From: Myxococcales bacterium
GTDB taxonomy: Bacteria; Myxococcota_A; Polyangia; Haliangiales; Haliangiaceae
Length of the DNA stretch: 64,000 nt
Reading direction: 5' to 3'
NCBI GenBank assembly: GCA_016707895.1
Contig: JADJGV010000002.1
Location: 335,695-399,694 of the forward strand
Numbering within the stretch: position 1 is the first letter of the stretch; each line of letters starts with the position of its first letter. The notes beneath the pieces were generated by a model. The model made no database searches. It was not told the origin of the DNA and was given only the letters and a program-made list of their open reading frames with translations. Positions 19,400 through 56,804 of the stretch are shown here, one piece after another. Position numbers and translations under genes: made by a program.

Positions 19400-19993
19400 C
19401 TACTTCTTCAGCACCAGCACCGTCAGGACGCCCTGCAGCTGCGGCGCGGTGGCGCTGGAGACGTTGGCGGTGGCGGCGTTGGGGTCGGGGGCGATCACCT
19501 TGACCTCGACGGTGTGGTTGCCCGGCGCCAGGTTGTACGAGCGGGCCATCGACCAGCTGGCGATCATCTGACCGACCGCGGCGGAGTTGGCGGCGACCAC
19601 GCGGCGCACGCCGCCCTGGTTCGACGCGATGCCATCGACGAAGATCGCGACGTCGACGACCGAGTAGGCGGTGCCGACGGCGGTGCACTGGATGCCGCCG
19701 TTGGTGCTGACGTGGACCGCGGCGTTGTCGGGCACGGTGATCACCTGCTGCAGGCCGGGGATCAGCACGTAGCTGGTGAACGCCGAGGTCACCGCGAGCT
19801 GGCCGGTGCCGTAGATCTCGTAGAGGTTCTGGCCGGTGGTGCCGGCGGGGCCCGCTGGCCCGGTGTTGCCGGTCTGGCCGGTCTGGCCGGTCTGGCCCGG
19901 CGGCCCTTCGGGGCCGGGCTCGCCGTCGAGGCCCGCCGGCCCCGAGCAAGCGACCGCGAGCAGGAGCGTACCGATCGACCAGAGCGTGCGCAT
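19400..19993 (-). CDS. lipoprotein with collagen-like G-X-Y triplet repeats
   Basis: Internal ATG gives MRTLWSIGTLLLAVACSG, followed by GEPGPEGPPGQTGQTGQTGNTGPAGPAGTTGQ and a beta-rich domain. The longer upstream extension looks non-coding. Confidence 0.5.
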   Translation of the reverse strand: MRTLWSIGTLLLAVACSGPAGLDGEPGPEGPPGQTGQTGQTGNTGPAGPAGTTGQNLYEIYGTGQLAVTSAFTSYVLIPGLQQVITVPDNAAVHVSTNGGIQCTAVGTAYSVVDVAIFVDGIASNQGGVRRVVAANSAAVGQMIASWSMARSYNLAPGNHTVEVKVIAPDPNAATANVSSATAPQLQGVLTVLVLKK

Positions 19994-20039
19994 CGCGCCG
20001 ACGCTATCAGACGCCTCAGCGGCTGTGTCAGCATGCGGC

Positions 20040-21146
20040 ATGGGTCGCATCGCCGTGCTCGCCGTCGCCGTGCTCGCGTGCTCGAAGTCGTCGGTGCCGT
20101 CGCCACCGCCGCCGCCCGCCCCGCCGCCGGTCGCGCCCGTGGCCCCCGCGGCGCCCGCGAGCTGTCTGCGCGACGTCGGCCAGGTGCAGGCCGCGCGCGG
20201 CGCACCGAGCGCGCCGATGCGGCCCACGCACACCTTCTCGATCGTCGCGCGCGATCCGGTCACCGGCGATCTCGGCGTCGCGGTGCAGTCGCACTGGTTC
20301 GCGGTCGGCGCCGGCGTGACCTGGGCCGAGCCCGGCGTCGGCGCGATCGCGACGCAGTCGTTCGCCGAGCCGGCCTACGGGCGCAAGGGCCTCGAGCGGA
20401 TGCGCGCCGGCACCAGCGCCCCCGACGCGCTGGCCGCGCTGCTGGCCGAGGACGCCAAGCGCGACGTGCGCCAGGTGGCGTTCGTCGACGGCAAGGGCCA
20501 GGTCGCGGCCCACACCGGCGCCGCCAACATCGCGTTCGCCGGCCACCACACCGGCGCCGGCTACTCGGTGCAGGCCAACATGATGGCCAACGATCGCGTC
20601 GTGCCGGCGATGCGGGCCGCCTACGAGGGCGCGACCGGCGACCTGGCCGAGCGCCTGCTGGCCACGCTGGCGGCGGCGCAAGCGGCGGGCGGCGACGTCC
20701 GCGGCTGCCAGTCGGCGGCGATGCTGATCGTCAAGGGCACGCCCTCGGCCGAGCCGTCCCACGACACGCTGGTCGACCTGCGCGTCGACGACGCCGCCGA
20801 TCCGATCGCCGAGCTGGGCCGGCTGCTCAAGCTGCAGCGGGTCTACGACCACATGAACGCGGGCGACGGCGCGGTCGAGCGCGGCGACGTGGCGGGCGCC
20901 AAGCAGCACTACGGCGCCGCGGCGGCGGCCGCGCCCGAGCTGACCGAGGTCCGCTACTGGAGCGCGGTCGCGCTGGCCTCGGCCGGCGACGTCGACGCCG
21001 CGCTGCCGATGTTCACCAAGATCTTCGCCGAGGACAGCCGATGGATCGAGGTGACCCGCCGCATCCAGCCGGCGGTGGTGCCGGCCACCGCCGAGGGCGA
21101 CGCGGTGATCCAGAAGATCCTGACCGCCGCGCCGACGCCGCGCTGA
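20040..21146 (+). CDS. DUF1028-family (Ntn-hydrolase-like) lipoprotein
   Basis: Lipobox LACS. Conserved core [43 protein letters not shown]. The upstream part of ORF 19836..21146 is antisense to the collagen-like gene. Confidence 0.75.
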
Positions 21147-21173
21147 TCACGCCGGCGGGGTGATACGCTTGCC

Positions 21174-21770
21174 GTGATGGATCCGGATCGCGAGCTGCTC
21201 GAGCGCTGGCGCGCAGGCGACCAGGCCGCCGGCCGCGATCTGTTCGCGCGCTTCTTCGATCCGCTGTTCCGGTTCTTCGCCAACAAGTGCAACGAGCCCG
21301 ACGAGCTGGTCCAGGCGACGTTCTTCGCGCTGGTGAAGGCCCGCGATCAGTTCGCCGGCCGCTCGAGCTTCCGCACCTACCTGTTCACGATCGCGCGCAA
21401 CGAGCTGTACCGCTGGCTGCGCACCTTCAAGCGCGAGCGCGGCTTCGACCCCGAGCTGTCGTCGATCGCCGAGGTCGCGACCACCGCCGGCTCGCGGCTG
21501 GCCCGCAACGAGGAGCACCGCCGGCTGTGCGCCGCGCTGCGCACGCTGCCGGTCGAGTCCCAGACCCTGCTCGAGCTGCACTACTGGGAGGGCCTCGACG
21601 CCACCGCGCTGGCCGAGGTCTTCGACGCCCAGGTCGCCACCATCCGCCAGCGCCTCTCGCGCGCCCGGGTCGCCCTCAAGGACGCCCTGGCCGCCAGCGA
21701 GGGGGCCCCGCTGCCCGCGCTGGCCACGGTCGAGGACATGGATACCTGGGCGAAGTCGCTGGCGGGATAA
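21174..21770 (+). CDS. RNA polymerase sigma-70 factor, ECF subfamily
   Basis: Region 2 (…FFALVKARDQFAGRSSFRTYLFTIARNELYRW…) and region 4 (…ALAEVFDAQVATIRQRLSRARVAL…) are both recognisable. Confidence 0.85.
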   Translation: MMDPDRELLERWRAGDQAAGRDLFARFFDPLFRFFANKCNEPDELVQATFFALVKARDQFAGRSSFRTYLFTIARNELYRWLRTFKRERGFDPELSSIAEVATTAGSRLARNEEHRRLCAALRTLPVESQTLLELHYWEGLDATALAEVFDAQVATIRQRLSRARVALKDALAASEGAPLPALATVEDMDTWAKSLAG

Positions 21771-21788
21771 GGCTTTCGGCGGCCGTCG

Positions 21789-21801
21789 ATTTTCGGTCAC
21801 A
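21789..21801 (+). promoter_or_regulatory. TTTTCGGTCACA motif ~30-40 nt upstream of paralog A start
   Basis: Same 12-mer recurs at the equivalent position upstream of paralog B (22946..22958). Confidence 0.35.
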
Positions 21802-21828
21802 ACGCCGACCGACCTTCATCCATAGGGC

Positions 21829-22887
21829 ATGAAGCGAACCGTTGTGGCACTCCCGCTCGCCCTGGCTCTGGCCGCGTGCGTCGACAGCCCGGAGGTCGGG
21901 CAGGCTGAGAGCGCCGTGATCAACGGCGACGGCGACGAGTGCCCCAAGCTCGGCTGCAGCTCGAACTCGGCGTACCTCGGGCCGACCGAGTTCCACGAGC
22001 TGGAGGAGACCGGCCTGTATCCCAACGCCGAGGGGCTGTACTTGAAGGGCCTCATCAAGAACGGCGTCACGTGGCGCCCCGACGTCACCGGCACCGTGCT
22101 GACCGGCAGCCGGTGGGCGCTGGTCGCTGGCGTGTGGACGTACCAGACGCTCAGCGGGTCGAACCTGGTCAACGCGGAGCTGGTGGTGAAGAACGCCGCG
22201 GGCACCCTCGAGTACCGCATCCGCATCACCAACGCCTCGCTGAGCCAGCAGTTCTGGCAGGCGCCGATCACGAACGTGAACACCTACGAGCTCAAGTGGC
22301 GGCAGGTGGTGCCGACCACGACCGACTTCGTCCCGGTCTGCAAGAACCCGCCGAACCGCGAGACCGAAGACGGTCCCACCCAGAACACGCTTGAGTCGAT
22401 CTTGTTTGCGGGCGATCGCTACGACACCGATACCCTGACGGTCACGGCATCGACGCCGGCCGAGGCGACGACCTGGTTCAACATCGGCTGCGCGGGCACC
22501 GTGCTGGCCAAGCTCGCGCTCAACCGGCACACCGACGCGACGAAGTCGGCGCAGGTCACCGCCACGCGGGCCCAGCGTCAGGCGATGCTCAAGATGTACA
22601 CGTCGGACGTGTGCAACAGCGGTGACGCGCTAACGGTCAGCGGCACGCCGCTGCGCTGGTGGAGCCCCACCGGCCTCACCAACAAGGCGATCCCGACGAC
22701 TTCGAAGGAGGCCTTGTGGACCGCCAACGGCGCGATCTGCCTCGACACCCACCGGCTGAACGGCACGGCCGACGACATGACCAAGCAAATCGAGGACGCC
22801 TGCAAACGGGTCAACCGCCCGGTCCCGCCGCCCTGCATGGACGCCTCCGGGGCCTGGGCCTTCCGGACCGAGAGCCAGGCACACTAG
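21829..22887 (+). CDS. lipoprotein of unknown function, tandem paralog A
   Basis: Lipobox LALAAC. Shares the conserved block CPKLGCSSNSAYLGPTEFHELEETG and overall collinearity with 22987..24069. Confidence 0.75.
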   Translation: MKRTVVALPLALALAACVDSPEVGQAESAVINGDGDECPKLGCSSNSAYLGPTEFHELEETGLYPNAEGLYLKGLIKNGVTWRPDVTGTVLTGSRWALVAGVWTYQTLSGSNLVNAELVVKNAAGTLEYRIRITNASLSQQFWQAPITNVNTYELKWRQVVPTTTDFVPVCKNPPNRETEDGPTQNTLESILFAGDRYDTDTLTVTASTPAEATTWFNIGCAGTVLAKLALNRHTDATKSAQVTATRAQRQAMLKMYTSDVCNSGDALTVSGTPLRWWSPTGLTNKAIPTTSKEALWTANGAICLDTHRLNGTADDMTKQIEDACKRVNRPVPPPCMDASGAWAFRTESQAH

Positions 22888-22910
22888 ATCAGCGATCTCA
22901 AACGGTTGGC

Positions 22911-22950
22911 GCGCGGGGTCACCGAAATGGGGTGACCCCGCGCTCTTTTT
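22911..22950 (+). terminator. rho-independent terminator (13-bp GC-rich stem, 7-nt loop, TCTTTTT tail)
   Basis: GCGCGGGGTCACC-gaaatgg-GGTGACCCCGCGC followed by TCTTTTT, directly after the paralog A stop. Confidence 0.7.
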
Positions 22951-22958
22951 CGGTCACA
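22946..22958 (+). promoter_or_regulatory. second copy of the TTTTCGGTCACA motif, upstream of paralog B
   Basis: Overlaps the terminator T-tract. Spacing to the ATG is the same as for paralog A. Confidence 0.35.
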
Positions 22959-22986
22959 GGGCCCAGCTGCTCGTATCAATCCCGGC

Positions 22987-24069
22987 ATGACGCGACACAT
23001 TCTGGCACTCGCGATGGCGCTGGCGGCGGCGGGCTGCGTCGAGGACCCGACGCTCGGCACGGACCAGAGCTTGGTCAAGAACGGCAACGGCGACGAGTGC
23101 CCGAAGCTCGGCTGCAGCTCCAACTCGGCCTACCTAGGCCCGACCGAGTTCCACGAGCTCGAGGAGACCGGCACCTACGCCAACGATGAGGGCTTTCGGA
23201 TCACGAGCTTCACCAAGACGGTGGGCAGCGTGACCACGACCTACCGCCCCGACGTCTCCGGAACGACGCTGGTGGGCAAGCGGTACAGCATCTTGATCCA
23301 CGGCTGGTACACCGCGCTCAGCGGGCCCGACCTGGTCGGCGCGGTGTTCAACGTCGAGCGCACGGTCGACGGCCTCGTCACGGCGAGGTACCAGATCAGG
23401 ATCACCGCGGCCAGCACCGCGCAGGAGTACTGGCAGCCGCCCGCCGGACTGCTGAACACCTACGAGCTGCAGTGGCGCATGGTCTACCCGAGCTCGACCC
23501 ACCTCGTGCCGGTCTGCAACAACCCGCCCAACCGCCTCGACGGCGAGGGGACGTGGTGGCGTAAGACCACCGAGGCCGTGCTGTTCACGGGCGACCGCTA
23601 CAACAGCGACTCGTTGACTGTGACCGCTGGCGATCCCGCGTCCTCGGGCGACTGGTTCAACATCGGCTGCTCGGGCACGGTGCTGGCCAAGCTGGCCCTC
23701 AACCGCCACACCTACGCGACCCAGTCGTCGACGGCACCGACCACGATCGCCCAGCGCCAGGCGATGCTCAAGATGTACACCTCCGACGTGTGCAACACCG
23801 GCGATGCGTTGACGGTCGTCGGCACGCCGCTGCGCTGGAACAGCACCACCGGTCTGGCGAGCCCGCCGATCGCGGTCAACAGCTACGAGGCGCGGTGGAC
23901 TGCGGCTGGCGCGATCTGCCTCGACACCCACCGCACGAACGGCACCGCCAACGACATGGACGTGCAGATCGCCGAGGCCTGCGCGGTCGCAGGCAAGGCG
24001 GTGCCGCCCCCCTGCGCGGGCGCGCCGACCAGCTACTACCTGCGGACCACCAGCCCGGCGCTGCCCTGA
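22987..24069 (+). CDS. lipoprotein of unknown function, tandem paralog B
   Basis: Lipobox LAAAGC. Alignable end to end with paralog A. Confidence 0.75.
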   Translation: MTRHILALAMALAAAGCVEDPTLGTDQSLVKNGNGDECPKLGCSSNSAYLGPTEFHELEETGTYANDEGFRITSFTKTVGSVTTTYRPDVSGTTLVGKRYSILIHGWYTALSGPDLVGAVFNVERTVDGLVTARYQIRITAASTAQEYWQPPAGLLNTYELQWRMVYPSSTHLVPVCNNPPNRLDGEGTWWRKTTEAVLFTGDRYNSDSLTVTAGDPASSGDWFNIGCSGTVLAKLALNRHTYATQSSTAPTTIAQRQAMLKMYTSDVCNTGDALTVVGTPLRWNSTTGLASPPIAVNSYEARWTAAGAICLDTHRTNGTANDMDVQIAEACAVAGKAVPPPCAGAPTSYYLRTTSPALP

Positions 24070-24079
24070 CCGACCGCCA

Positions 24080-26590
<2,511 letters not shown>

Positions 26591-26608
<18 letters not shown>

Positions 26609-26636
26609 GGCGCGCGGCGGTTCCGATAGTATCCCG
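26591..26636. repeat. 46-bp repeat, copy 1: GGCGAGCGGATCGGCCATGGCGCGCGGCG(G)TTCCGATAGTATCCCG
   Basis: 45/46 identical to copy 2 at 33568..33613, same orientation. Contains the kinase start codon on the minus strand. Confidence 0.8.
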
Positions 26637-26663
26637 CCGGCTGGGTCGGGGCGGCGTGCGCCG

Positions 26664-27334
26664 TCATCCCACGCGCGCGAGCGAGACCAGGCCGCCCGCA
26701 AAGAGCTCGGGGAACCGGGCGCGCAGGCGGTCGCGATCGCGGTCGGCGTCGGCGACCCAGGCCGCCGGCACCTCGACTGTGCGTGTGGGGCGCGGCGCGT
26801 CGGCCGCGGGCCACCACGCCACGGCTAACGCGCCGTCGTCGGCGACGGCGTCGACGATCAGGCTCGAGCCCGCCGCGGCGAACTCGGGGGCGTTGGCCAG
26901 GAGGCGGGCCTTCACGCACTCGATCAGCGCGTCGTCGTGGCCGTGCTGCCACAGCACCAGCTTCTCCCGCAGCCCCTCGTAGCCGCGCACCAGGCGGACC
27001 CGGTTCGGCGCGAGGTGGGTGACCAGCGGCGAGCCGTGCGTAAAGCCGCGGGCCACGCCGTCGAACAGCGCGCGCTCGTGATCGCGCCAGGCCGGCCAGG
27101 CCGACGGCGCTAGCGCCATCACCCAGTGGCCGCGTTCGAGGTCGGTGTACAGGATCGACCGCGCGACCTCGATCCGCGCGCCGCACGCCTCGCACGCGAC
27201 CTGATGGAAGCGCCGGGCCAACACTGCCGCCCGCACCGCCGGCACCCGCGACCCGTGGATGCCGCGTGCCAGCTCGGCGCTGGTCGAGCCGTCGCAGTGC
27301 GGGCACGTCAGCGTGCGGATCTCCCAGGTCGACA

Positions 27335-27335
<1 letters not shown>
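26664..27335 (-). CDS. CpXC-domain (zinc-ribbon-like) protein
   Basis: CPHC…CEAC motif pair. Its ATG overlaps the TGA of the upstream AAA+ gene (ATGA), so start is an internal ATG of ORF 26664..27557. Confidence 0.6.
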
Positions 27336-29344
<2,009 letters not shown>

Positions 29345-29391
29345 CGCGCGCGACGGTACAGGATCGTGACCGGCGATGGTACGCTACCCGC

Positions 29392-29949
29392 GTGTGGCTG
29401 GGTCGCGTCCCGATCGTCGTCGCCGCGATGCTCACTGGCTGCTCGCACGGCGCGCCGCGCCCGACCGGTGACCCCGGCGTCTCGGGCGACGCCGGCGCCG
29501 TGATCGACGGCGGCGCTGCGGTCGATGGCGGCGCCGTCGCGGTCGCCCCGGCGGCGCCGCTGGACGCCGCCACCCCGGTCGACGCGGCGCCATCGGGTCC
29601 TTGGGACTGGGCTGGCGTGCGCGCCGCCGAAGGGCGTTGGCGCCGGTCGCCGGAGTGCGACTACCAGCCGCCGTGTCCGGTCTGGCTCCTGGCCGCCAAG
29701 ATCGTCAGCGCCCAGCGCGGCGGCGGTCGCACCCGCGTGATCATCGACCTGGGCGCCGACGATCACGTCGTCGTCGGCATGCTGGGGCGGCTGGTGGCCG
29801 CCGACGGCCGGCCCGACACGGCGCGGTTCGCCGTCACCGACCTGGCCGCGCGCCAGGCCTGGGCCGAGGCGCCGGGCGACGTCGGCGTCGGCACCGGTCG
29901 TCTACTGCTGTGGAACCCGACCGTGCACGCCATGCCCGAGGAGCCCTGA
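29392..29949 (+). CDS. hypothetical lipoprotein, tightly linked upstream of the 1195-aa protein
   Basis: GTG start. Signal and lipobox VWLGRVPIVVAAMLTGC. Stop lies 1 nt before the next ATG. Confidence 0.55.
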   Translation: MWLGRVPIVVAAMLTGCSHGAPRPTGDPGVSGDAGAVIDGGAAVDGGAVAVAPAAPLDAATPVDAAPSGPWDWAGVRAAEGRWRRSPECDYQPPCPVWLLAAKIVSAQRGGGRTRVIIDLGADDHVVVGMLGRLVAADGRPDTARFAVTDLAARQAWAEAPGDVGVGTGRLLLWNPTVHAMPEEP

Positions 29950-29950
29950 C

Positions 29951-32900
29951 ATGACCCGCGACCAGCGCGATCGCGAGCACGCCGAGCCCGAGCACGTCAC
30001 CCACCGCGCCCGGCCGCGCAACGCGCGCGGCGACGACGCCGTCGTCGAGGACGAGCTCGACTCGGCCGAGGCGTGGCGTCAGGTCGACGAGATCCTCACC
30101 CAGCACGCCGGCGGCGAGCGTCTGCCGGGGCTGGCCCGGTCGCTCGACGCCACCGGCAAGGCCCAGCTGGTCGCGCGCATGAACGACCTGCGCGCGTTCG
30201 CGGGTGACGTCGTGTGGGACACGCTCCTGGCCACCGGCAACTCGCTGGCGTTCGCCATCACCTTCGCGCCGTACGGGGCGACGCCGGTGAGCAAGGAGCG
30301 GGTCCGCAAGCACGTGGAGCGGCTGCGCGCCGCCGATCTCGCGGACCTGACGGGGCTGCCCTTCGTCGAGCTGCGCAAGTACTTTCCAGGCAAGCTCGCC
30401 GACGAGTTGCCCACCCTGGTGCGCGACCTGACGGGCCTGACCGGAAACGCCGACGTCGTGGGGTGGTGGCTGACCACCACCGAGCCGAAGCTCGCCGCGC
30501 ACCGCCTGGCCGCGGTCGCCGACACGGCGCTGGCCAAGACCTGCGACGAGGCGCAGCTGTGGGGATGGCTCGACGATCTCGATGGCGCGTCCGCGTACTA
30601 CGGGCTGCCCGAGCTGTGGAAGGCGACGAGCGACCCGACCGCCAAGGCCAAGCTGGCGGCCAAGCTCGGGCCGCTCGCGACCGAGGATCCCGAGTTCGCC
30701 GCCGAGGGCGATCTGCACAAGCCCGAGGTCCAGGCGGTGGTGAAGCGCCGCGGCTCGGCCGCGGAGCTGCTCGACGCCACGGCGCTGGCGCGGGGGCGCG
30801 GAGACGCGTCGGTGGCCGACGTCCTGGCCACGCTGCGTCGCGATCCTCCGACGCCGACGCAGGCGGTGCAGATCCTGGCCACCCTGACGTACGAGCCGAT
30901 CGCGGTCGTGGTGCCGCCCCTGCTCGAGGTGCCGGGCGTCACGGCGACGCACCTGCTGACCTTGTGGGCGAACTTCGGCTACTCCGAGCAGGCTGCGGCG
31001 CTGCGTGACGACCGCCTGCGCGCCGCGATCAAGAAGCGGCTCGGGCCGGGGGTCCCGTTGCGCGCGCTGGTCGACACCGCGTACGTGAAGGCCGCGGAGC
31101 TCGCGCCCGACGAGGCGCTGCGGCGCTGGTGGATCGCCGACGCGGCGCCCGCCGACGCGCTGTGGCTGGTCGCCTCGGGATCACCGTCCGAGTGCGCGGC
31201 CGCGTGTCGGGCGTTGCGCAGCGACGGCGCCGGGCTGAGGTGGGCCAAGCAGCTCACGGCCCAGGACAACCAGGAGCAGCTGCGGGTCCTCGCCAACAAC
31301 TGCGGCGACCCCGCGACCACGGCCCGCCTGCGCGAGTCGGTGATTCGCGAGTGGTCGTGGGATCCCATCACCGCCGGTCAGCGAGAGGACGCCGAGATCA
31401 CGGGCCCGGCGCGGCCCCGGCTCGACGCGGCGGTCCACGACCCGACGGCCGACCGGGTCGCGCGGCTGGCGGATCTCGACGACGCCGAACGGGCGGCGCT
31501 CGCCCGCGATCCCAAGGCGGTCAGCGAGTTGACGGCGCACCTCGACCAGGACGAGCTGGTCCGCGCGCTGGCGTTGCTCGACCTCACCGTCGCGAGCGCG
31601 ATCCGTGCCACACCGGCGCGCGGCTACCACCGCGGCGTCGTCGAGTACCTCCGGACCCGCCCGGCCGGCGAGGAGGCGGAGGTGTTCGAGCACGCCGACC
31701 TGATCGATCGCGCCACGGGGCACGTCCACCCCGACCCGCTGCTGGTGCTGCCCTCGTTGCGCCAGCCCAAGCGCCTGGTCCAGGCGATCGCGCTGGTGCC
31801 GGCGGTCGTCGAGCGGCTGCTGGCGGGGAGCGACCCGAGCCTGGCGCTGCGGTTGCTCGATGATCCGTTGGTGCGCCCCAAGGCGGCGCCCTATCTGGCC
31901 GGGCGCCCCGAGGCGCTCGACGCGCTGCCGCGCTACGAGCACCTGACCGCGCGAGGCCAGACCGCGTTCGACGAGCTGGGGCGAGCCGCGGGCGCGCAGC
32001 GCGGCGGTGACGAGGTGCGCGACGTCGTGGCCGAGATCGCTGACGGTACGTACGAGGACGGCGCCGCGAAGGCCGCGGCGCGCGGGGCCACGCTGGACAA
32101 CGCGCGACAGCAGGCGACGATCGATGGCGCGGTCGCAGCGCTCGATCAGGGCGCCAGCGAGACCGCCGACGCGATGGCGCTCGTGCACCAGTTCCGCGGT
32201 CAGATCCCGGCGCTGATCGCCGATCCGGCGCGGTGGCCGACCGTCGATCGCCTGCGCGCGCTGATCGGCATGCTGCCGACGGTGGCGTTCCCCGAGCTCT
32301 CGCCGGCGACGTTGCTGCGATCGATCAACACCCGGCGCTGGATGTTCGAGGACGCCCAGGGGTTCCTGTTGCTCGGCGCCTTCGCGAAGGATCCCGGCGC
32401 GGCGGTGCTGGTGGCCGTGGCGTTGTTCGACGACGAGCCCGGGGCCCGGGCGTGGTTGCGGCGCCTCCCCCGCGCCGCCGGCCTGACCGATCGCGAGGAG
32501 GACTGGCTGGACAAGCTCGCGTCGCTGGTCGCCGATCCCGACGTCCTGCGCGATCTCTTCCTGGTGCGGTTCGGGATCGCGGCGCCGGCGCAGTACGCGT
32601 CGGCGACGCTGCACACGCTCTACGAGACCTTGTCGCGGTTGCCCGACGGCCACCTGCAGCAGGAGCGCATCAAACAGGTCGTCTCCACCGACGCCGGGGT
32701 TGGCGTCGGTGGGTACTGGGCGGAGGATCTCAAGACGATCGTGATCGACGACGAGATGGCACCCGACAAGGCCACCGACGAGACGCCGGAGCGCGCGTCG
32801 TGGATGACCCGGGCGCAGGTCGCGGAGCGCTACGGGTTCGACGACGCCGCACTGGCGGCGCAGGTTGCGGCCGGGCACGTCGAGCAGCGGGCCTTCGACG

Positions 32901-33538
32901 AGGGGACGCTGTACAAGATCGCCACCGTCGTCCAGGACAAGTTCACCTCGACCGTGCTGCACGAGGTCGGGCACGCCGTCGACGAGATCCTCGGCACGCA
33001 GACCGAGGTGATCTACGACCGCGCCGGCTGGCGGAAGTACGGGATCGATCAGTTCGAGACCTGGGCCGCCGAGGCCGGCGGCTGGGACAAGGTCGCTGCC
33101 AAGGATCGCGCGCCGATCCGCCAGGCCTGGGTCGACTCGCTCTTCACGCGCCGCGCCGTCAAGGAGCTGGTGCCGGACGACCACCCGGCGCTGGCGGCGC
33201 GCTACGCAGGCGTCGGGCTCGTCGACGACGCCCGAGCCGACCGCAAGAGCGAGTACCACGAGCGCAACCAGCACGGCGATCGCGTGTTCGTCTCGCAGCC
33301 GCACTACCAGGCGTTCTACTCGGTGCCGTTGCGCACGTCGCAGGTCGCCCCGTCGGACTACTCGATGTACGCGCCCGAGGAGTACTTCGCCGAGTGCTAC
33401 GTCGAATACTACCGCGAGGTCGACGGCACACCCGAGGGGCAGCGCAAGAAGGGTGGCGTGCTGCCGGTGTGGATCAAGCAGTGGTTCGATCAGCACGTCG
33501 ACCGCGTGCGGTTCGACCCCAAGCGCATGAAGCCCTGA
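29951..33538 (+). CDS. large (1195 aa) cytoplasmic-type protein with C-terminal HExxH zinc-metallopeptidase-like motif
   Basis: VLHEVGHAVDE plus a downstream EEYFAE (possible third-ligand Glu) within the last ~250 aa. Long helical, Ala/Leu/Asp-rich N-terminal region. No signal peptide. Antisense ORF 31181..33739 is rejected. Confidence 0.75.
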   Translation: MTRDQRDREHAEPEHVTHRARPRNARGDDAVVEDELDSAEAWRQVDEILTQHAGGERLPGLARSLDATGKAQLVARMNDLRAFAGDVVWDTLLATGNSLAFAITFAPYGATPVSKERVRKHVERLRAADLADLTGLPFVELRKYFPGKLADELPTLVRDLTGLTGNADVVGWWLTTTEPKLAAHRLAAVADTALAKTCDEAQLWGWLDDLDGASAYYGLPELWKATSDPTAKAKLAAKLGPLATEDPEFAAEGDLHKPEVQAVVKRRGSAAELLDATALARGRGDASVADVLATLRRDPPTPTQAVQILATLTYEPIAVVVPPLLEVPGVTATHLLTLWANFGYSEQAAALRDDRLRAAIKKRLGPGVPLRALVDTAYVKAAELAPDEALRRWWIADAAPADALWLVASGSPSECAAACRALRSDGAGLRWAKQLTAQDNQEQLRVLANNCGDPATTARLRESVIREWSWDPITAGQREDAEITGPARPRLDAAVHDPTADRVARLADLDDAERAALARDPKAVSELTAHLDQDELVRALALLDLTVASAIRATPARGYHRGVVEYLRTRPAGEEAEVFEHADLIDRATGHVHPDPLLVLPSLRQPKRLVQAIALVPAVVERLLAGSDPSLALRLLDDPLVRPKAAPYLAGRPEALDALPRYEHLTARGQTAFDELGRAAGAQRGGDEVRDVVAEIADGTYEDGAAKAAARGATLDNARQQATIDGAVAALDQGASETADAMALVHQFRGQIPALIADPARWPTVDRLRALIGMLPTVAFPELSPATLLRSINTRRWMFEDAQGFLLLGAFAKDPGAAVLVAVALFDDEPGARAWLRRLPRAAGLTDREEDWLDKLASLVADPDVLRDLFLVRFGIAAPAQYASATLHTLYETLSRLPDGHLQQERIKQVVSTDAGVGVGGYWAEDLKTIVIDDEMAPDKATDETPERASWMTRAQVAERYGFDDAALAAQVAAGHVEQRAFDEGTLYKIATVVQDKFTSTVLHEVGHAVDEILGTQTEVIYDRAGWRKYGIDQFETWAAEAGGWDKVAAKDRAPIRQAWVDSLFTRRAVKELVPDDHPALAARYAGVGLVDDARADRKSEYHERNQHGDRVFVSQPHYQAFYSVPLRTSQVAPSDYSMYAPEEYFAECYVEYYREVDGTPEGQRKKGGVLPVWIKQWFDQHVDRVRFDPKRMKP

Positions 33539-33617: not shown

Positions 33618-35101
33618 GTGGACGAACCCGAGGTCAACGCCGTCGAAGCCGTGCCCAGTCCGATCGAGTGGGTGGGGCTGGCCCTGGGTGGCGCGCCGTT
33701 CGCGGTCAGCCATTCGGTGACCCGCATCAGCACGAGCAACGGCGCGGTGACGTCGGTGTACTACCGCGACTGGGTGGCGCTCGGCTGTGGCGCCGCGGCG
33801 GCGGCGATCGGACTGCTCGCGCTGGTCCGGCTGCGGTCGACGGCCCCGGCCCGCCGCACGCTGCGCGCAGTGGTGGCGCTGGCGCTGCTCGTAGCAGGCG
33901 TCGCGCAGGTGCTGCGCGGCGTCGGGACCATCGACGGGCCGAAGGTGGAGGCGCCGGCGATCACGACCGGCCCCGCGACCCCGCCGCCCGCGGCGGTCGA
34001 TCCGGCGGTGGCGTGCGACGGCGGCGACAGCGAGGCGTGCAACCGCGCCGGCATGGCGGCCATCGCCGCCGAGCAGTGGACGATCGCGCGCCAGCGGTTC
34101 GAGGCCGGCTGCGCGCGCAAGCACGGCGAGAGCTGCAAGAACCTCGGCGTCATGTACGACCACGGCGACGGCGTCGAGCGCAACCAGGTCAAGGCGGTCG
34201 GCTACTACGGCCAGAGCTGCGACGCCGGCAACGCGGTCGGCTGCTTCAACCTCGGCATGGCCCGCTACCAGGGCGCCGGCGTCGATCGCGACGTGCCCGG
34301 CGCCGCCGGCATGTTCAAGCGCGCGTGTGCGCCGACAGCGCCGCGGCGTGCAACCAGCTGGCGATCATGCTCGGCGACGGCGTCGGCGTGCGCGAGGACG
34401 ACGCGGCGGCGTTCGAGCTGTACACCAAGGCGTGCGACGCCAAGCTGGCGGTCGCGTGCCGCAACGCCGGGCTCAAGCTCGACGACGGCGAGGGCGTGAC
34501 CGCGGATCCGGCCAAGGCGCTGGCGCGGTTCGTCGAGGCGTGCGACGGCGGCGACGGCGCCGGATGCTCGGACGCCGGCGCGCGCTACCAGGCCGGCCGC
34601 GGCGTCACCGCCGATCCGGCGCAGGCGCGCACGTACTACGAGCGGGCGTGCCGCCTGAACTACGGCGACGGCTGCAACCGCCTGGGCCGCCTGGCCGAGG
34701 AGGGCGTCGGCGAGGCCAAGGACCTGGCCAAGGCCGCGGCGCTGTACGAGCAGGCCTGTGCGCTGGGCGCCGGCTACGGCTGCTCGAACCTGGCGTTCCT
34801 GAAGGGCGGCATCACCAAGCAGCTGCCGCTGTACCAGCGCGCGTGCGAGCTGGGCGCCGCCGGCGTGTGCGTCGACCTCGGGATGGCGCTGTACACCGGC
34901 AAGGTCCTGAAGAAGGACGCGGCGGCCGCGCTGCCCCTGTTCGAGCGCGGCTGCGCGCTGGGCGACGAGGTCGGCTGCCGCAACGCCGGCATCCAGTACT
35001 TCCGCGGCGAGGGCGCCAAGGCCGACCGCGTGAAGTCGCACGACCTGCTGGTGCGGGCGTGTCAGCTCGGCGACGCCGCGTCGTGCAAGGAGCTCGAGTA
35101 G
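33618..35101 (+). CDS. Sel1-repeat (TPR-like) membrane protein with an apparent 1-bp frameshift near 34326 (possible pseudogene or sequence error)
   Basis: Two N-terminal TM helices, then Sel1 repeats (…C..G.GV..D…A..YY..AC…). The repeat register continues seamlessly from frame 33618 into frame 33584 at …AGMFKRAC|ADSAAACNQLAIMLGDGVGV…. The other continuation of each frame is Arg/Ser-rich noise. Confidence 0.6.
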
Positions 35102-52088: not shown

Positions 52089-55000
52089 TCACGGGCACGC
52101 GTTGGCGCTGCCCGGCGTCGCCGGGGTGGCGACGAACCCGCCGGCGCCCTCGGGGCAGCGGCCGGCCGACGCGACGTGGGCGGTCCACACGTGCTGATCG
52201 ACCCGCACGTCGTACGGCGTGTACAGGTTGGCGGCGTCCGCCGCGCCGAGCCCGAAAGTCAGGCGTAGCGCGGCGGCGCTGGTGTCGGCCTCGACCAGCA
52301 ACCGGGCGCCCGGCGCGATGGTGGTGCCGATCGGGAAGACCATCACGTGGGTCGGGTCGTTGTCGGTGAGCTTCCAGCCGCCGAGGTCGACCGCGGTCGC
52401 GCCCGTGTTGATCAGCTCGACGAAGTCGAGCGGCGTCGACGCCACCTCGTTCAGCTTGATCGTCGCCTGGCCGGCCACGGTCGGCGGCGTGCAGTCGTTG
52501 GCGACGCCGGGCGTCGGCGGTGTCGGCGCCCACATCGCGGCGCTCGCGTCCGTCGGGCAGCGGCTAGCCGCGGCGACGTCGGCGGTCCAGGCGTAGCGCG
52601 CGACCTCGGTGCCGGGCGGCGTGTAGACGACGATCGCGTCGGCCGGGTCGAGCGCGAACGGGAGGCGCAGCGCGGCCGCGCTGGTGGCCGCGTCGATCAG
52701 CAGGCGGCCGCCGGCGGCGATCGTAGTGGCGGCGGGGAGCTGGTAGACGTGGGTCGGATCGGCGTCGGTGAGCCGCCAGCCGCCGACGTCGACCGCGGTG
52801 GTGCCGCGGTTGAGCAGCTCGACGTAGTCGGCCGCCGAGTTGACCTCGCTGATCACGATCGACGTCTGGCCGGGGACCGGCGCCGCCACGTACTCGACGC
52901 CCAGCGCGCCGGGGTCCAGCTTGACGAAGTACGTCGGCGCCTGTCCCCCGGCGTTGTCGTTGGTGACCCACAGCCCGCCGGCGCCGAGCGCCAGGCCCTC
53001 GAGGTTCTCCTGATCGAAGCGGAAGCGGTGGGCCAGCAGGTCCACGGCGAGCGCCTTCTCGACCGGGTCGGCCGGGGCTCCGGCGGTGCCGCTGCCGAGC
53101 CGGAACACCCGGACGGTCTTGGACACCGCGTCGCCGGCCCAGCCCTGGTCGCGCTCGATGACCGCGAACTTGTCGCCGCCGAGGTGGAGCAGCTCCGACA
53201 GCGACTGGACGCCCGCGGCGCCGCCGCGATCGGCGTCGAGCGGATAGAAGAACCAGCGCCAGGTCCGCGCGTCGAGGTCGTACTCGCCGATGCGCGCCAG
53301 CTGGCCCTCGGTGGTCAGCGCGCGCTGCATCGCGACGTAGACGCGCACGCCGCCGGCCACCGCCGGGGTGGTGTCGACCACCGCCACGCCTTCGAAGCCG
53401 TTGGCCCGCACCGCGGTCCAGTCCAGCGCGCCGGGCTGCGCGCCGCACGGCAGATCCACGATCCCGCCGGCGCCGTACGCCGCGTCGAGGCGGCCGGCGG
53501 CGTCGAAGAACAACAGCCGGTTGCTCTGCGCCGAGCCCACGCACGGGGCGGTGGCGCCGTTGCCGGCGACGCCCTCGCTGGCGACGACGTGGCCGCCACC
53601 CGGCAACAGCGCCAGCCCCTCGGGGTCGTAGCCGACCAGCGGCGCGCCGGCCGCGTCGCGCAGCGGCAGGTCGCCGACCAGCTGCAGGCGGTGGCTGACG
53701 TGGTCGACCCAGAACGACCACAGCCGCGGCGCCGCGACCGCGCTGTCGGGCACCGCCAGCACCAGGCCGCTGGCCGGATCGACGGCGAGCGCGCCGAGCG
53801 CCGCGAACGGGACGCCGTCGGACCGTGCGTCGTAGGCGTCGGCGCCGTTGCCCGCGTCCGCGGCGTCGGTGACCGCCTGGTAGATCCACAGGCCACCGCC
53901 GGTGCCGTTGCCCTCTCCGGCCGCGACCACCAGGCCGCGCTGCGGCAGCGCGAGCACGCTCTCGGGGCGCATCGGCGCGCCGAGCATCTGGCGGATGACC
54001 GGCGCGGTCGGCGTGCTGACGTCGATCACGAACAGCGCGGCGTTGCGCTCGCCGGTCACGAACGCGTACTCGGTGCCGCCGAACACCCCGGTGCCGCAGC
54101 CCTCGGGCTCGATGCCGCGGTTGGCCGAGCGGCCGTCGGGGTACGCGCCGCCGCGCAGCGCGTACCACTCGAGCGCGTCGCCGCTGTCGTAGACCCGCGC
54201 GCCGTCGGCGCGGAACACCGAGAAGCCGCGGCCGCCAGAATAGACCCCGGCGCCGAACGCGTTGTTCGCGACGTCGCCCTCGTTGGCGGTGATGAAGAAG
54301 CTGCCGCCGGCGAACAGGCACGCCGCGTCGGGCTGCAGCTGGCCGACGAAGCCGGTGGCCGAGAAGTCGATGGCGCGGTTCGCGGTGAGGTCCGCGCGGG
54401 CGTGGATCGACGAGCCAGCGTCGATGTAGCGGGTCACGGTCGCGGTGGCCAGGTCGATCACCGCGATCAAGTTGTTCTCCTGCAGGGTGACGAAGGCCGT
54501 GGCGCCGTCGGGCGTGACGTCGACGTACTCCGGCTGCGGGTCGGTCGGCTGGTTACCGATGGTCGGGGTCAGCGCGATGGTGACGACCGTCGACGCGCCC
54601 GGCGTGGCGGTGTTGATGGTCAGGACCTGCACGCTGCCGGGGCGCGCCTGTGCCACCTGGTTGCCGTCGGGGTTCTCCTCGTCCTCGATCGCGATCACCG
54701 CGCGGGTGCCATCGGGAGTCAGGTGGATGCTGTCGGGGCCGACCCCGACCGCGACGGTGCCGACCACGGCGCGGGTGGTGAGGTCGATGAACGCGACCGC
54801 GCCGGCGTCGGCGCGGCCGATCGGATCGGTGGTGTCCTTGACCGTCACCAGCGCGAAGCGGCCGTCGGGCGTGATCGCCACCGACGTCGGCTCACCGGTG
54901 CCGCTGGCCACCGCGGTGCTGACGTCGATCGTCGCCAGCGCGACCGGCGCGTCGGCGCGGGTGAGGTCGACCAGGCCGATGGTGCCGGCGGGACCGCTGG

Positions 55001-55580
55001 TGTACGCCAGGGTCAGGCCGTCGGCGGAGGCGGCCACGATCTCGGCGATCGGGCCGGACGGGAGCGTGAAGCGCGCGAGCTCGCGGAAGCCGACCACCGC
55101 CGGGCCGCTCGGCGCACCGTCGCACACGTACGCGGTGGTGGTGATCTCGGCGGTGTCGAGGGTGCCGTCGCGATCGCTGTCGAGGCCGGTGTCGACGCGG
55201 CTGCCGCCGAACGTGCAGTTCGCGCCGGGCGCCTCGGGCCGCACGTCGATCAGCACGGTGACGCCGTCGGTGCCGTCCATCCCGTCGATGCCATCGGTGC
55301 CGTCGGTGCCGTCGGTGCCGTCGGTGCCGTCGGTGCCGTCGGTGCCGTCGGTGCCGTCGGTGCCGTCGCAGACGTAGGTCGTCGCGTCGACTTCACCGGG
55401 GTCGAGCGCCCCGTCGCCGTCGTCATCGCGCCCGGCGTCGACGCGGGTGCCGCCCGCGAGGCAGTTGTTGCCGGGAGCCTCGTCGGAGAACGCGAGCAGC
55501 GGTCCGGGCGCAGCATCCTGGCCACAGGCCGCGACGGCCAGCGCTCCAGCGATGAACAACAGCGATCGTCCTGGCGACAT
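52089..55580 (-). CDS. large surface lipoprotein: (GTD)n linker, beta-propeller/phytase-like (choice-of-anchor-I-like) region, two C-terminal lamin-tail (LTD) domains
   Basis: Internal ATG gives lipobox LAVAACG. GTDGTDGTDG… repeat. Two LTD-like units (…VISEVNSAADYVELLNRG…GGWRLTD… and …KLNEVASTPLDFVELINTG…GGWKLTD…). The antisense ORF 52347..55652 is rejected. Confidence 0.75.
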   Translation of the reverse strand: MSPGRSLLFIAGALAVAACGQDAAPGPLLAFSDEAPGNNCLAGGTRVDAGRDDDGDGALDPGEVDATTYVCDGTDGTDGTDGTDGTDGTDGTDGTDGIDGMDGTDGVTVLIDVRPEAPGANCTFGGSRVDTGLDSDRDGTLDTAEITTTAYVCDGAPSGPAVVGFRELARFTLPSGPIAEIVAASADGLTLAYTSGPAGTIGLVDLTRADAPVALATIDVSTAVASGTGEPTSVAITPDGRFALVTVKDTTDPIGRADAGAVAFIDLTTRAVVGTVAVGVGPDSIHLTPDGTRAVIAIEDEENPDGNQVAQARPGSVQVLTINTATPGASTVVTIALTPTIGNQPTDPQPEYVDVTPDGATAFVTLQENNLIAVIDLATATVTRYIDAGSSIHARADLTANRAIDFSATGFVGQLQPDAACLFAGGSFFITANEGDVANNAFGAGVYSGGRGFSVFRADGARVYDSGDALEWYALRGGAYPDGRSANRGIEPEGCGTGVFGGTEYAFVTGERNAALFVIDVSTPTAPVIRQMLGAPMRPESVLALPQRGLVVAAGEGNGTGGGLWIYQAVTDAADAGNGADAYDARSDGVPFAALGALAVDPASGLVLAVPDSAVAAPRLWSFWVDHVSHRLQLVGDLPLRDAAGAPLVGYDPEGLALLPGGGHVVASEGVAGNGATAPCVGSAQSNRLLFFDAAGRLDAAYGAGGIVDLPCGAQPGALDWTAVRANGFEGVAVVDTTPAVAGGVRVYVAMQRALTTEGQLARIGEYDLDARTWRWFFYPLDADRGGAAGVQSLSELLHLGGDKFAVIERDQGWAGDAVSKTVRVFRLGSGTAGAPADPVEKALAVDLLAHRFRFDQENLEGLALGAGGLWVTNDNAGGQAPTYFVKLDPGALGVEYVAAPVPGQTSIVISEVNSAADYVELLNRGTTAVDVGGWRLTDADPTHVYQLPAATTIAAGGRLLIDAATSAAALRLPFALDPADAIVVYTPPGTEVARYAWTADVAAASRCPTDASAAMWAPTPPTPGVANDCTPPTVAGQATIKLNEVASTPLDFVELINTGATAVDLGGWKLTDNDPTHVMVFPIGTTIAPGARLLVEADTSAAALRLTFGLGAADAANLYTPYDVRVDQHVWTAHVASAGRCPEGAGGFVATPATPGSANACP
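55264..55367 (-). repeat. 9-bp in-frame tandem repeat (GGTGCCGTC)n, ~10 copies, encoding (GTD)n
   Basis: Read directly. Lies within the CDS 52089..55580. Length changes would preserve the reading frame. Confidence 0.6.
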
Positions 55581-55703
55581 GGCCGAGACCTTGGCGGCGC
55601 TACGTGTGCGCACGATGCGGCGCGCGTGACGCCCTGGCGACAGTTCGGTTGAGCGATCGCCGCACCGCCTGCCGCGCGGCTCGCGGTCGTGGTACGTCGA
55701 GCC

Positions 55704-56804
55704 ATGGCCGCTCGCCTGCTGCTGGTCGCGTCGGCGCTCGCGCTGTTCGCGGGCGGGTGCAAGGACCGCAAGCCCACCCGCGGCGCGGTGCGGGTGGTGG
55801 TCGACGCCGGCGCGGCGCCGGTCGACGCCGGCGTCCCCGACCTCGGCTTCGTGCGCGGCGACGTCGTGATCGATCAGCTGCGCGACGGTCGCCACCAGCC
55901 GGCGCGGCTCGATCCCGCGACGCGGAGCTGGGTGCTGCTGGGCGACGGCGTCGGCGATCTGTACGTCACCGGCCACCGCCTCGGCGACGGCCTGCTGGCG
56001 ATCGCCACCGTGGGCAGCCACGAGGACGACCACCAGGAGCAGCTGGCGATCGTGATCGGCGCCCGGGTGGCGCGGTTCGGCCCCACCGCGAAGCAGGTGC
56101 GCCACCCCAGCGCGGCCGGCGGCGCCGTGGTGTTCGCCAGCGACCTCGCCAGCTACAGCGATCTGTACGCGATCACGCCCACCGCGCCGCCGCGCCGGCT
56201 CACCGACGACGCGGCCGGCAACTTCGAGCCGGCGCTGGCGCCCGACGGCGCGCGGGTGGCGTTCGCGTCATCGCGCGACGGCAACGCCGAGCTGTACGTC
56301 CAGCCGGTGGCCGGCCGCGCCGCTCGCCGCCTCACCGACGCCAGCCGCGACGACTGGAACCCCGCGTGGTCGCCCGATGGCAGCCAGCTGGCGTTCCTGT
56401 CGGATCGCACCGGCAGCGATCGCGTGCACCTGATCCCCGCCGCCGGCGGCGAGGCGCGCCGGCTGTCGAGCGAGCCGGGCACCACCGCGATGGAGGAGCA
56501 GCCGGCGTGGTCGCCCGACGGCCGCGCGGTGGCGTTCGTGCGCATGGGCGGCGGGCGCGCGGCGATCACGATCGTCGATGTCGCCACCGGCGCGACCCGC
56601 ACGCTCACCCCCGACGGCGACGCCGACCGCGGCTTCGCGTGGAGCCCCGACGGCCAGGCGATGATCGTCGCGCGCCGAGCGGCCAGCGGGGCGGCCACCG
56701 TCGTGCTGGTGCGGGTCGCCGACGGCGCGGTGCTCGATCGCTGGCCCGGCGACCCCGCCTACCTGCGGTGGATCGCGCCGTCGCCGGTCACGCCAGCTCG
56801 GTGA
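55704..56804 (+). CDS. TolB-like PD40 beta-propeller repeat lipoprotein
   Basis: Lipobox LFAGGC. Repeated …P.WSPDG..(V/L)AF.S.R.G… units. Confidence 0.75.
   Translation: MAARLLLVASALALFAGGCKDRKPTRGAVRVVVDAGAAPVDAGVPDLGFVRGDVVIDQLRDGRHQPARLDPATRSWVLLGDGVGDLYVTGHRLGDGLLAIATVGSHEDDHQEQLAIVIGARVARFGPTAKQVRHPSAAGGAVVFASDLASYSDLYAITPTAPPRRLTDDAAGNFEPALAPDGARVAFASSRDGNAELYVQPVAGRAARRLTDASRDDWNPAWSPDGSQLAFLSDRTGSDRVHLIPAAGGEARRLSSEPGTTAMEEQPAWSPDGRAVAFVRMGGGRAAITIVDVATGATRTLTPDGDADRGFAWSPDGQAMIVARRAASGAATVVLVRVADGAVLDRWPGDPAYLRWIAPSPVTPAR

Follow-up and report, generated by a model that had tools for sequence, protein, structure and literature searches.

What does a bacterium gain from a protein of 1195 residues that carries a zinc-peptidase motif at its extreme C-terminus, and with which genes does such a protein work? 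The question arises in a 64,000-nt stretch of a Myxococcales bacterium of the Haliangiaceae (GenBank assembly GCA_016707895.1, contig JADJGV010000002.1, positions 335,695 to 399,694 of the forward strand), hereafter the window, to which all coordinates refer. The gene in question, which we call BIG, runs from an ATG at 29951 to 33538 on the forward strand (29951..33538, +). We find a real gene whose catalytic-type motifs and partner genes are conserved across distant bacteria. In the reading that we favor, to which we give an even chance, BIG is a cytoplasmically made zinc endopeptidase, predicted to be catalytically competent, that is part of a cassette with a CpXC zinc-ribbon protein, is gated by an AAA+ ATPase in myxobacteria and belongs to a mobile conflict module. 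The narrower claim, comprising the identity of the enzyme and its linkage to CpXC alone, we regard as highly probable.

The window has a GC content of ~73%, at which long spurious open reading frames (ORFs) are common, and we told real from spurious frames by their GC content at the three codon positions (GC1/GC2/GC3). For BIG these values are 0.74/0.51/0.94, the pattern of the other coding ORFs of the window, and the coding signal in the frame plot begins at the ATG. An earlier sequence-only reading had described a 1195-aa ORF with a C-terminal VLHEVGHAVDE and a distal glutamate motif, and these are indeed present, in a frame with coding character. The product has three parts: a disordered N-terminus, an alpha-solenoid and a C-terminal zinc peptidase domain resembling anthrax lethal factor (LF) and the PPEP proteases.

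The first part, residues 1-34 (29951..30052, +), is charged and predicted to be disordered, with a predicted local distance difference test score (pLDDT) below 50, and contains neither a signal peptide nor a hydrophobic stretch. It is not conserved: the first ~45 consensus columns of the homologue alignment have no majority residue. Beyond it, the N-terminal ~870 residues are all-helical in the full-length AlphaFold2 model (pLDDT 89.0; predicted template modeling score 0.78), in agreement with the earlier description of a mostly helical protein lacking a signal peptide. Residues ~38-900 (30062..32650, +) form a solenoid of ~60 short helices whose HEAT/ARM likeness, judged by structure comparison, holds at the level of class only. 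This region has no sequence match in Pfam or the PDB. A PDB search with the single BIG sequence gave no match, a full-length profile did not yield any useful match to the N-terminal part, and Foldseek with the full-length model against the PDB returned only generic alpha-solenoids (TM ~0.1). Going by the model, we presume that the solenoid, with its ~870 residues, offers a platform on which a partner or a specific protein substrate binds, and this is how it is best read.

A second AlphaFold2 model (pLDDT 90.5) is confident, as is the full-length one. The peptidase domain, residues ~905-1195 (32663..33535, +), comprises a beta-sheet (aa 909-944), the HExxH helix (aa 997-1013), an insertion of ~90 residues and the Glu helix (aa 1142-1154). 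The sequence VLHEVGHAVDE (aa 1002-1012, nt 32954-32986) contains H1004-E1005-V-G-H1008 (32960..32974, +), that is, two putative zinc ligands and the putative catalytic base. The second motif, YSMYAPEEYFAE (aa 1137-1148; 33359..33394, +), reads Y1137...E1144-Y-F-A-E1148 and supplies a candidate catalytic tyrosine, third zinc ligand and second-shell glutamate; it is the first part of the segment YSMYAPEEYFAECYVEYY (aa 1137-1154, nt 33359-33412). E1144 lies 136 residues past H1008, farther than the ~100 residues at which the distal motif had been placed before. In the proposed mechanism, zinc would be held by H1004, H1008 and E1144, E1005 would act as general base and Y1137 would stabilize the transition state. 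A small winged-helix subdomain of the excisionase/MerR type (aa 954-990; 32810..32920, +) sits just before the active-site helix; it is kept in the myxobacterial family and absent from several short relatives.

How far these residues are conserved depends on finding the family, which becomes visible only with an exhaustive search, since word-indexed protein searches came back nearly empty: full-length BIG retrieved one relative (94% identity), the C-terminal profile 10, and an Ideonella protein 6. An exhaustive HMMER search of 1.84 billion cluster representatives recovered 158 relatives, ~50 of them full-length (~1200 aa) at 27-52% identity. We aligned 42 full-length homologues, at 22-94% identity to BIG. 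The invariant positions include H1004, E1005, H1008, D1011, E1144, F1146, A1147, Y1150 and Y1153, and Y1137 and E1148 are at least 90% conserved; the HExxH and the distal glutamate, whose conservation the sequence-only reading had proposed as a check, are thus both kept. Both motifs occur in 104 of the 150 listed cluster representatives. Those that lack one are fragments or too short for the region, except the complete sequence P0133, in which aspartate replaces the first glutamate, a conservative change. A lone HExxH in 1195 residues is not rare, and it is the invariance of the catalytic-type residues across the 42 homologues that places this one beyond chance.

Full-length relatives are restricted to metagenome-assembled genomes (MAGs) of Myxococcota (Kofleriaceae, Haliangiales and others). 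The C-terminal domain travels farther and also terminates large proteins (420-1900 aa) of Ideonella, Roseateles, Methylotenera, Sulfitobacter, Pseudooceanicola, Planctomycetota and others. All full-length homologues have this same C-terminal domain, and matches confined to the N-terminal region are short fragments. The peptidases are labeled "hypothetical protein" in the RefSeq records that we examined (three annotated plasmid records and an Ideonella record), so that the present analysis would define a family hidden under that label.

To which enzyme family does the domain belong? Pfam matched full-length BIG to ATLF (PF07737) only, below threshold (14 bits against a cutoff of 27.4), and the C-terminal fragment scored 19.3 bits, still under the cutoff; sub-threshold ATLF matches recur in 14 of 27 family members. 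When searched as a profile, the C-terminal domain matched the catalytic-centre fragment of LF across both motifs (HMMER, E = 0.016), with weaker matches to PPEP-1/Zmp1 and to an ATLF-like protein. In this alignment FIHEFGHAVDD of LF pairs with VLHEVGHAVDE of BIG, the extended motif HExGHAVD being common to both (HEFGHAVD in LF), and the Y1137/E1144-Y-F-A-E1148 segment pairs with SYGRTNEAEFFAE of LF at the same Tyr-to-Glu spacing of 7; SYGRTNEAEFFAEAF pairs with the Tyr...E-F-F-A-E segment. We take the Tyr, Glu and Glu of the distal motif to be the counterparts of Y728, E735 and E739 of LF. The predicted fold, a peptidase fold, is closest to LF/PPEP structures. BIG therefore has the motifs of M34/ATLF enzymes (an HExxH helix, and a downstream Glu motif with a Tyr upstream of it) and scores below the family's Pfam threshold. 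We conclude that the C-terminus of BIG is probably a gluzincin, distantly LF/PPEP-like (M34-like), in which the catalytic set is complete. The earlier assignment to gluzincin-type HExxH+E metallopeptidases thus agrees with the invariant residues, the LF-aligned motifs and the predicted fold.

The sequence-only reading had also allowed that the motif might be inactive, and a catalytically dead pseudo-peptidase serving only as a scaffold would fit an ATLF score below the Pfam threshold and the ~90-aa insertion between the HExxH and the Glu helix. However, the catalytic-type residues are invariant or nearly so over deep divergence, and the single deviation, in P0133, is the conservative one. As all five catalytic-type residues are conserved, we consider a dead enzyme very unlikely.

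The likeness of BIG to the M34/ATLF enzymes, namely LF and PPEP-1/2/3 (Zmp1), lies in the extended motifs HExGHAVD and Y-x6-E-F/Y-F-A-E. The HExxH-to-Glu spacing is ~45 residues in LF and the PPEPs, whereas it is 135-165 residues in the BIG family, which accommodates an inserted helical/beta region. BIG further differs in adding the winged-helix subdomain just upstream of the active-site helix, in having no signal peptide and no protective antigen (PA)-binding domain, in being joined to a solenoid of ~870 residues, and in the pairing of its gene with CpXC and AAA+ genes. LF-type proteases are known as toxins (LF) or adhesin-releasing enzymes (PPEPs), both of them secreted; in BIG, LF-type catalytic machinery ends a huge, cytoplasmically made solenoid protein. 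A second structural relative of the peptidase domain is MtfA (Peptidase M90), a cytoplasmic regulatory peptidase whose activity is governed by the binding of a partner protein. Weak M90/MtfA matches occur in 4 of 27 BIG family members, and no sequence match is significant. Unlike BIG, MtfA, a small aminopeptidase with a single domain, has no solenoid and no CpXC or AAA+ partner.

Which genes, then, accompany the peptidase? We analyzed 45 loci, consisting of 44 from a genome-collection scan (L002-L045) and L001, using tBLASTn and ORF clustering, and found only three conserved gene families around the BIG-type peptidase: the peptidase itself, CpXC and the AAA+ ATPase. The neighborhoods of the close homologues P0002 and P0003 lie on short, uninformative contigs. 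CpXC is the most constant partner. It adjoins the peptidase gene in 38 of the 45 loci, from Myxococcota, Proteobacteria and Planctomycetota, so that a gene for an LF-like enzyme is locked to one for a zinc-ribbon protein across three phyla. In every one of the 21 non-myxobacterial loci CpXC immediately follows the peptidase gene in the same orientation; ~10-140 nt separate the matched regions, and in four of these loci the two reading frames abut without a gap. In Myxococcota the peptidase, CpXC and AAA+ genes are adjacent through at least four gene orders and orientations; since adjacency outlasts these changes, the linkage appears functional rather than merely operonic.

In the window, the CpXC gene (26664..27335, -) lies on the far side of the AAA+ gene, outside the segment that the sequence-only reading had considered, and its ATG overlaps the TGA of the AAA+ gene by 1 nt. 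Its 223-aa product is a bona fide member of PF14353 (E = 1.3e-17, 64.4 bits against a cutoff of 25.4). Among 30 CpXC partners four cysteines, which form two CxxC pairs, are invariant, at aa 11, 14, 48 and 51 of the 223-aa protein (12, 15, 49 and 52 in alignment numbering, which has one extra leading residue). Compared with the PF14353 family, the partners carry an extra conserved C-terminal domain of ~110 residues, in which a charged patch is invariant or nearly so. They diverge about as slowly as the peptidase domain. Tandem peptidase-CpXC pairs occur in Roseateles, and L025 holds two pairs. In P0151 (L051 395-1780) the peptidase carries, as a fused segment, the C-terminal half of a CpXC-like protein; this segment is 39% identical over 62 residues to the CpXC of the window, and the Cys-less N-terminal half is encoded separately, by a 100-aa gene. 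This locus is on an element with a relaxase and a type IV secretion system coupling protein (T4CP), adjoining a SIR2_2 + HerA/DUF87 pair. RefSeq labels the partners in the members examined "CpXC domain-containing protein," and literature searches for CpXC, for PF14353 and for CpXC together with the type VI secretion system (T6SS) turned up no account of its function.

The same peptidase domain also occurs in a 545-aa subfamily, P0155 (L046 10001-11638), which has a faint LysM match and kinase, TIR and MopE-like genes around it. We did not count it as a cassette member, as a lipoprotein gene rather than CpXC follows it and the context is a different one.

We infer that the protease and CpXC form a cognate complex, on the grounds of translational coupling, fusion, tandem cognate pairs and similar divergence rates. 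The peptidase would be one half of the cassette and the CpXC zinc-ribbon protein the other. CpXC would bind the peptidase region stoichiometrically and most likely restrain the protease, in the manner of an immunity protein, an antitoxin or a prodomain; we favor restraint because the immediately downstream arrangement and the duplicated pairs are typical of toxin-neutralizer systems. Alternatively, CpXC may be an adaptor. Whether inhibitor or adaptor, it would provide a role for the uncharacterized PF14353.

The third conserved family raises the question of how an ATPase might enter this arrangement. The AAA+ gene (27335..29344, -; 669 aa) is divergent from the operon of BIG and the lipoprotein gene described below, and matches PF00004 (E = 1.7e-31) and PF22977 (E = 7.6e-7). 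Its product combines a winged-helix region at the N-terminus (PF22977) with a degenerate P-loop module (LHGLPGSGRG) and a classical AAA module that, as read from its residues, is intact (Walker A GPPGTGKT, pore loop KYVG, Walker B ILLFDEAD and FRRR). The closest solved relatives are Cdc48, p97 and VAT. We read the protein as a putative substrate-threading unfoldase of no named family. The gene adjoins the cassette in 15 of 24 Myxococcota loci and in none of the 21 others. The sequence-only reading had spoken of AAA+ neighbors in the plural: adjacency stands, now as a conserved partnership within Myxococcota, but the window has one such gene only.

The best NCBIfam match of the ATPase is IteA, and PADLOC reports IetA (E = 1e-31). 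The AAA module is indeed closest to the IetA/IteA models, and the logic of an AAA+ ATPase gene accompanied by a protease gene is shared. The likeness stays at the level of the AAA module, however: the N-terminal 400 residues of the window ATPase are unrelated to the matched part, and the cassette has CpXC and a zincin where IetS is an S8 serine protease. We therefore rejected an IetAS/IteAS anti-phage system, given an IteA score of 114 bits against an equivalog cutoff of 510 and a zincin as the partner protease. The divergent starts of the AAA+ gene (29344, -) and the lipoprotein gene (29392, +) are separated by 47 bp (29345..29391), and with so short a gap the two promoters must overlap each other or the coding regions.

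An intact pore loop in a classical Cdc48/p97-like unfoldase module is also what one would expect of a split ATP-dependent regulatory protease, comparable to a split FtsH or to Cdc48 with Wss1/SPRTN, in which the AAA+ protein unfolds, CpXC is the adaptor and the solenoid-peptidase cuts, with a role in signaling or quality control that is possibly tied to the neighboring Ser/Thr kinase. CpXC is coupled to the AAA+ gene in Myxococcota and to the peptidase elsewhere, as a bridging adaptor would be; a CpXC-like fusion to the peptidase fits a subunit; kinases recur nearby; and the structural relative MtfA has a cytoplasmic regulatory role. On the other hand, no AAA+ gene accompanies the pair outside Myxococcota, the multi-copy, tandem and plasmid- or integrative and conjugative element (ICE)-borne distribution is unlike that of housekeeping proteases, and a family of 158 representatives in 1.84 billion is rare. 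We consider a split regulatory protease quite unlikely.

In the conflict-module reading that we prefer, the Myxococcota AAA+ unfoldase, translationally coupled to CpXC, would act on the CpXC-peptidase complex, and would either pull CpXC off and thereby yield an active protease, or feed the protease its substrate. The distribution of the cassette is patchy, multi-copy and partly plasmid- and ICE-borne. Several MAGs hold multiple copies, and copies are found on Roseobacter plasmids, in one case beside rep/par genes. The cassette is probably a conflict module, of toxin or defense type, and not a housekeeping protease.

If it is a conflict module, is the peptidase exported? A large protein with no signal peptide, a toxin-type domain at its extreme C-terminus and a small same-strand gene immediately downstream could be an antibacterial effector, delivered into neighboring cells by a T6SS or another contact-dependent route, whose LF-like protease cuts a cytoplasmic target there and whose CpXC partner is the immunity protein in the cytoplasm; pairs in tandem suit effectors and their partners as well. 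This explanation overlaps in logic with the one that we favor. T6SS genes are found within 8 kb in ~6 of the 21 non-myxobacterial loci, in two independent proteobacterial lineages. Roseateles (L032/L037) has a fused VipA-VipB protein of 657 aa and TagF near the cassette, Ideonella (L026/L030/L047) has VipA/VipB and TagF, and the Sulfitobacter plasmid OZ243121 (L039) has TssM, PP2C, a PpkA-like kinase and OmpA, part of which set recurs in Pseudooceanicola. L036 is also among the proteobacterial loci with T6SS genes beside the peptidase-CpXC pair.

In the window, none of the ~40 ORFs that we scanned with Pfam belongs to a T6SS family, and four T6SS queries (VipA/B, TagF, TssM, PP2C) matched none of the Myxococcota loci among the related loci searched. 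On three Roseobacter plasmids there are no secretion genes within 20 kb of the cassette. Nor did Pfam detect PAAR, VgrG, Rhs or other domains in the N-terminal regions, or a regular-expression scan the MIX motif. The C-terminal domain is fixed rather than polymorphic, CpXC and the peptidase domain evolve at about equally slow rates, and a dedicated single-ring AAA+ unfoldase is not known as an accessory of T6SS effectors. We consider an exported effector with CpXC as its immunity protein unlikely.

LF-type metallopeptidase domains have been cataloged among polymorphic-toxin domains, including one in Haliangium, as Tox-ALFMPTase, the LF-like metallopeptidase domain of polymorphic toxins and of toxins delivered by Photorhabdus virulence cassettes (PVCs) (Zhang et al. 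2012, PMC3482391). BIG shares with them an LF-like metallopeptidase at the C-terminus of a large bacterial protein, an adjacent small partner gene and an occurrence in deltaproteobacteria (Myxococcota), Haliangium among them (PMC3482391). It differs in having no trafficking module, whether PVC-metallopeptidase (DUF4157), signal peptide, RHS or filamentous-haemagglutinin type, in a partner that is CpXC and not SuFu-type immunity, and in a C-terminal domain that is not exchanged among homologues. In view of the missing trafficking module, SuFu-type immunity and cassette polymorphism, we rejected the identification of BIG as a Tox-ALFMPTase polymorphic toxin of that catalog (PMC3482391).

The sequence-only reading had been reminded of effector/ATPase pairs around contractile injection systems and of DUF4157-type metallopeptidases, while observing that sheath, tube and baseplate genes were absent. 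An effector loaded by the ATPase onto an extracellular contractile injection system would account for the adjacent AAA+ gene and perhaps for the disordered N-terminus of BIG, and most reports of LF-like metallopeptidase toxin domains concern PVC-type toxins, for example in Haliangium (PMC3482391). That observation of absence is right, as no sheath, tube or baseplate family appears among the ~40 scanned ORFs of the window, but it tells against the comparison, and so do the conserved neighbors of the 45 loci, which include no such genes. Pfam finds neither DUF4157 nor another N-terminal packaging domain in BIG, and we found no relatives in viral contigs. A contractile-injection effector is, in our judgment, extremely improbable.

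Returning to a cytoplasmic, CpXC-partnered peptidase in a conflict module, several observations weigh against it. The locus L020, with full 8-kb flanks, has neither CpXC nor AAA+, and L009 has no detectable CpXC gene and a partial AAA+ match only. The P0151 fusion is at least as compatible with an adaptor or regulatory subunit as with an inhibitor. Other toxin domains never take the place of the C-terminal domain, which means that the family cannot be called polymorphic. The window is an ordinary piece of chromosome, with UvrB, LspA, UppS and CdsA genes and without hallmarks of a defense island or mobile element, and neither the peptidase nor CpXC has a PADLOC model.

A bolder version, which we advance tentatively and hold to be less than probable, is that the cassette is an undescribed conflict system in which a solenoid-tethered LF-like protease is inhibited by CpXC and released by the AAA+ protein in myxobacteria, and which has become a T6SS effector-immunity family in some Proteobacteria. 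If true, it would provide a first function for PF14353, the CpXC family, and add a new way of gating a toxin protease, by an unfoldase that extracts the inhibitor; if some members are T6SS cargo, they would constitute a new effector-immunity family. The cassette offers a tractable setting in which to study the gating of a toxin-type protease by an AAA+ unfoldase. The catalytic fold is a known one, and the solenoid-tethered architecture and the conserved partnership with CpXC, with or without AAA+, appear to be undescribed in the literature that we searched.

Of the remaining neighbors, the closest to BIG is a small lipoprotein gene (29392..29949, +; GTG start, 185 aa), with a coding signal from ~29360 and the lipobox VPIVVAAMLTG|C. 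Its TGA (29947-29949) ends one base ahead of the BIG ATG, as had been described, and its product has no Pfam, NCBIfam or PADLOC match. Only two other loci, L001 (75% identity) and L002 (33% identity), have homologues, each with a lipobox. The description of BIG as lying fused behind a lipoprotein gene therefore holds for the arrangement in the window and fails as a conserved trait, being limited to the closest clade. Downstream of BIG is a gene for a membrane-anchored protein with Sel1-repeat matches (33618..35101, +), which recurs only in L001. It is split across two frames by a 1-nt deletion at ~34329, where the window reads GCGTGTG-CGCC and the 94%-identical L001, whose copy is intact in one frame, reads GCGTGCGACGCC; it is either a pseudogene or the result of an assembly error. 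We regard both genes as lineage-specific companions and rejected them as module members, since their recurrence is limited to the closest relatives L001/L002. Small secreted or membrane-anchored Sel1-repeat proteins are encoded near the cassette in other loci of Burkholderiales and Methylotenera (L047 15133-15705, L030, L032, L037, L040), at positions not homologous to that of 33618..35101.

A Ser/Thr protein kinase gene (24080..26701, -; up to 873 aa, Pkinase E = 2.8e-32) is directly downstream of CpXC and possibly co-transcribed with it; its membership of the module is uncertain. Ser/Thr kinases are encoded within 8 kb of the cassette in L002, L015, L022, L026/L047, L030, L036 and L039, and directly adjacent to it in the window and in L002. 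In the proteobacterial loci they adjoin OmpA, PP2C or T6SS genes. A signaling link to the cassette is possible; Myxobacteria encode many Ser/Thr kinases, and chance is hard to exclude there.

The window also encodes an acetyl-CoA-synthetase-like enzyme, a radical SAM enzyme and an extracytoplasmic function (ECF) sigma factor. The last is one of four genes at 19824..24069 (+), namely those for a DUF1028+TPR protein, the ECF sigma factor (21147..21770) and two paralogous ADYC-domain proteins (21826..22887 and 22987..24069, +). Farther along, a gene at 52089..56267 (-) encodes a protein of ~1390 aa with Phytase-like, Lamin-tail, DUF7151, choice-of-anchor I and collagen-repeat domains, which is probably a large surface or secreted protein.

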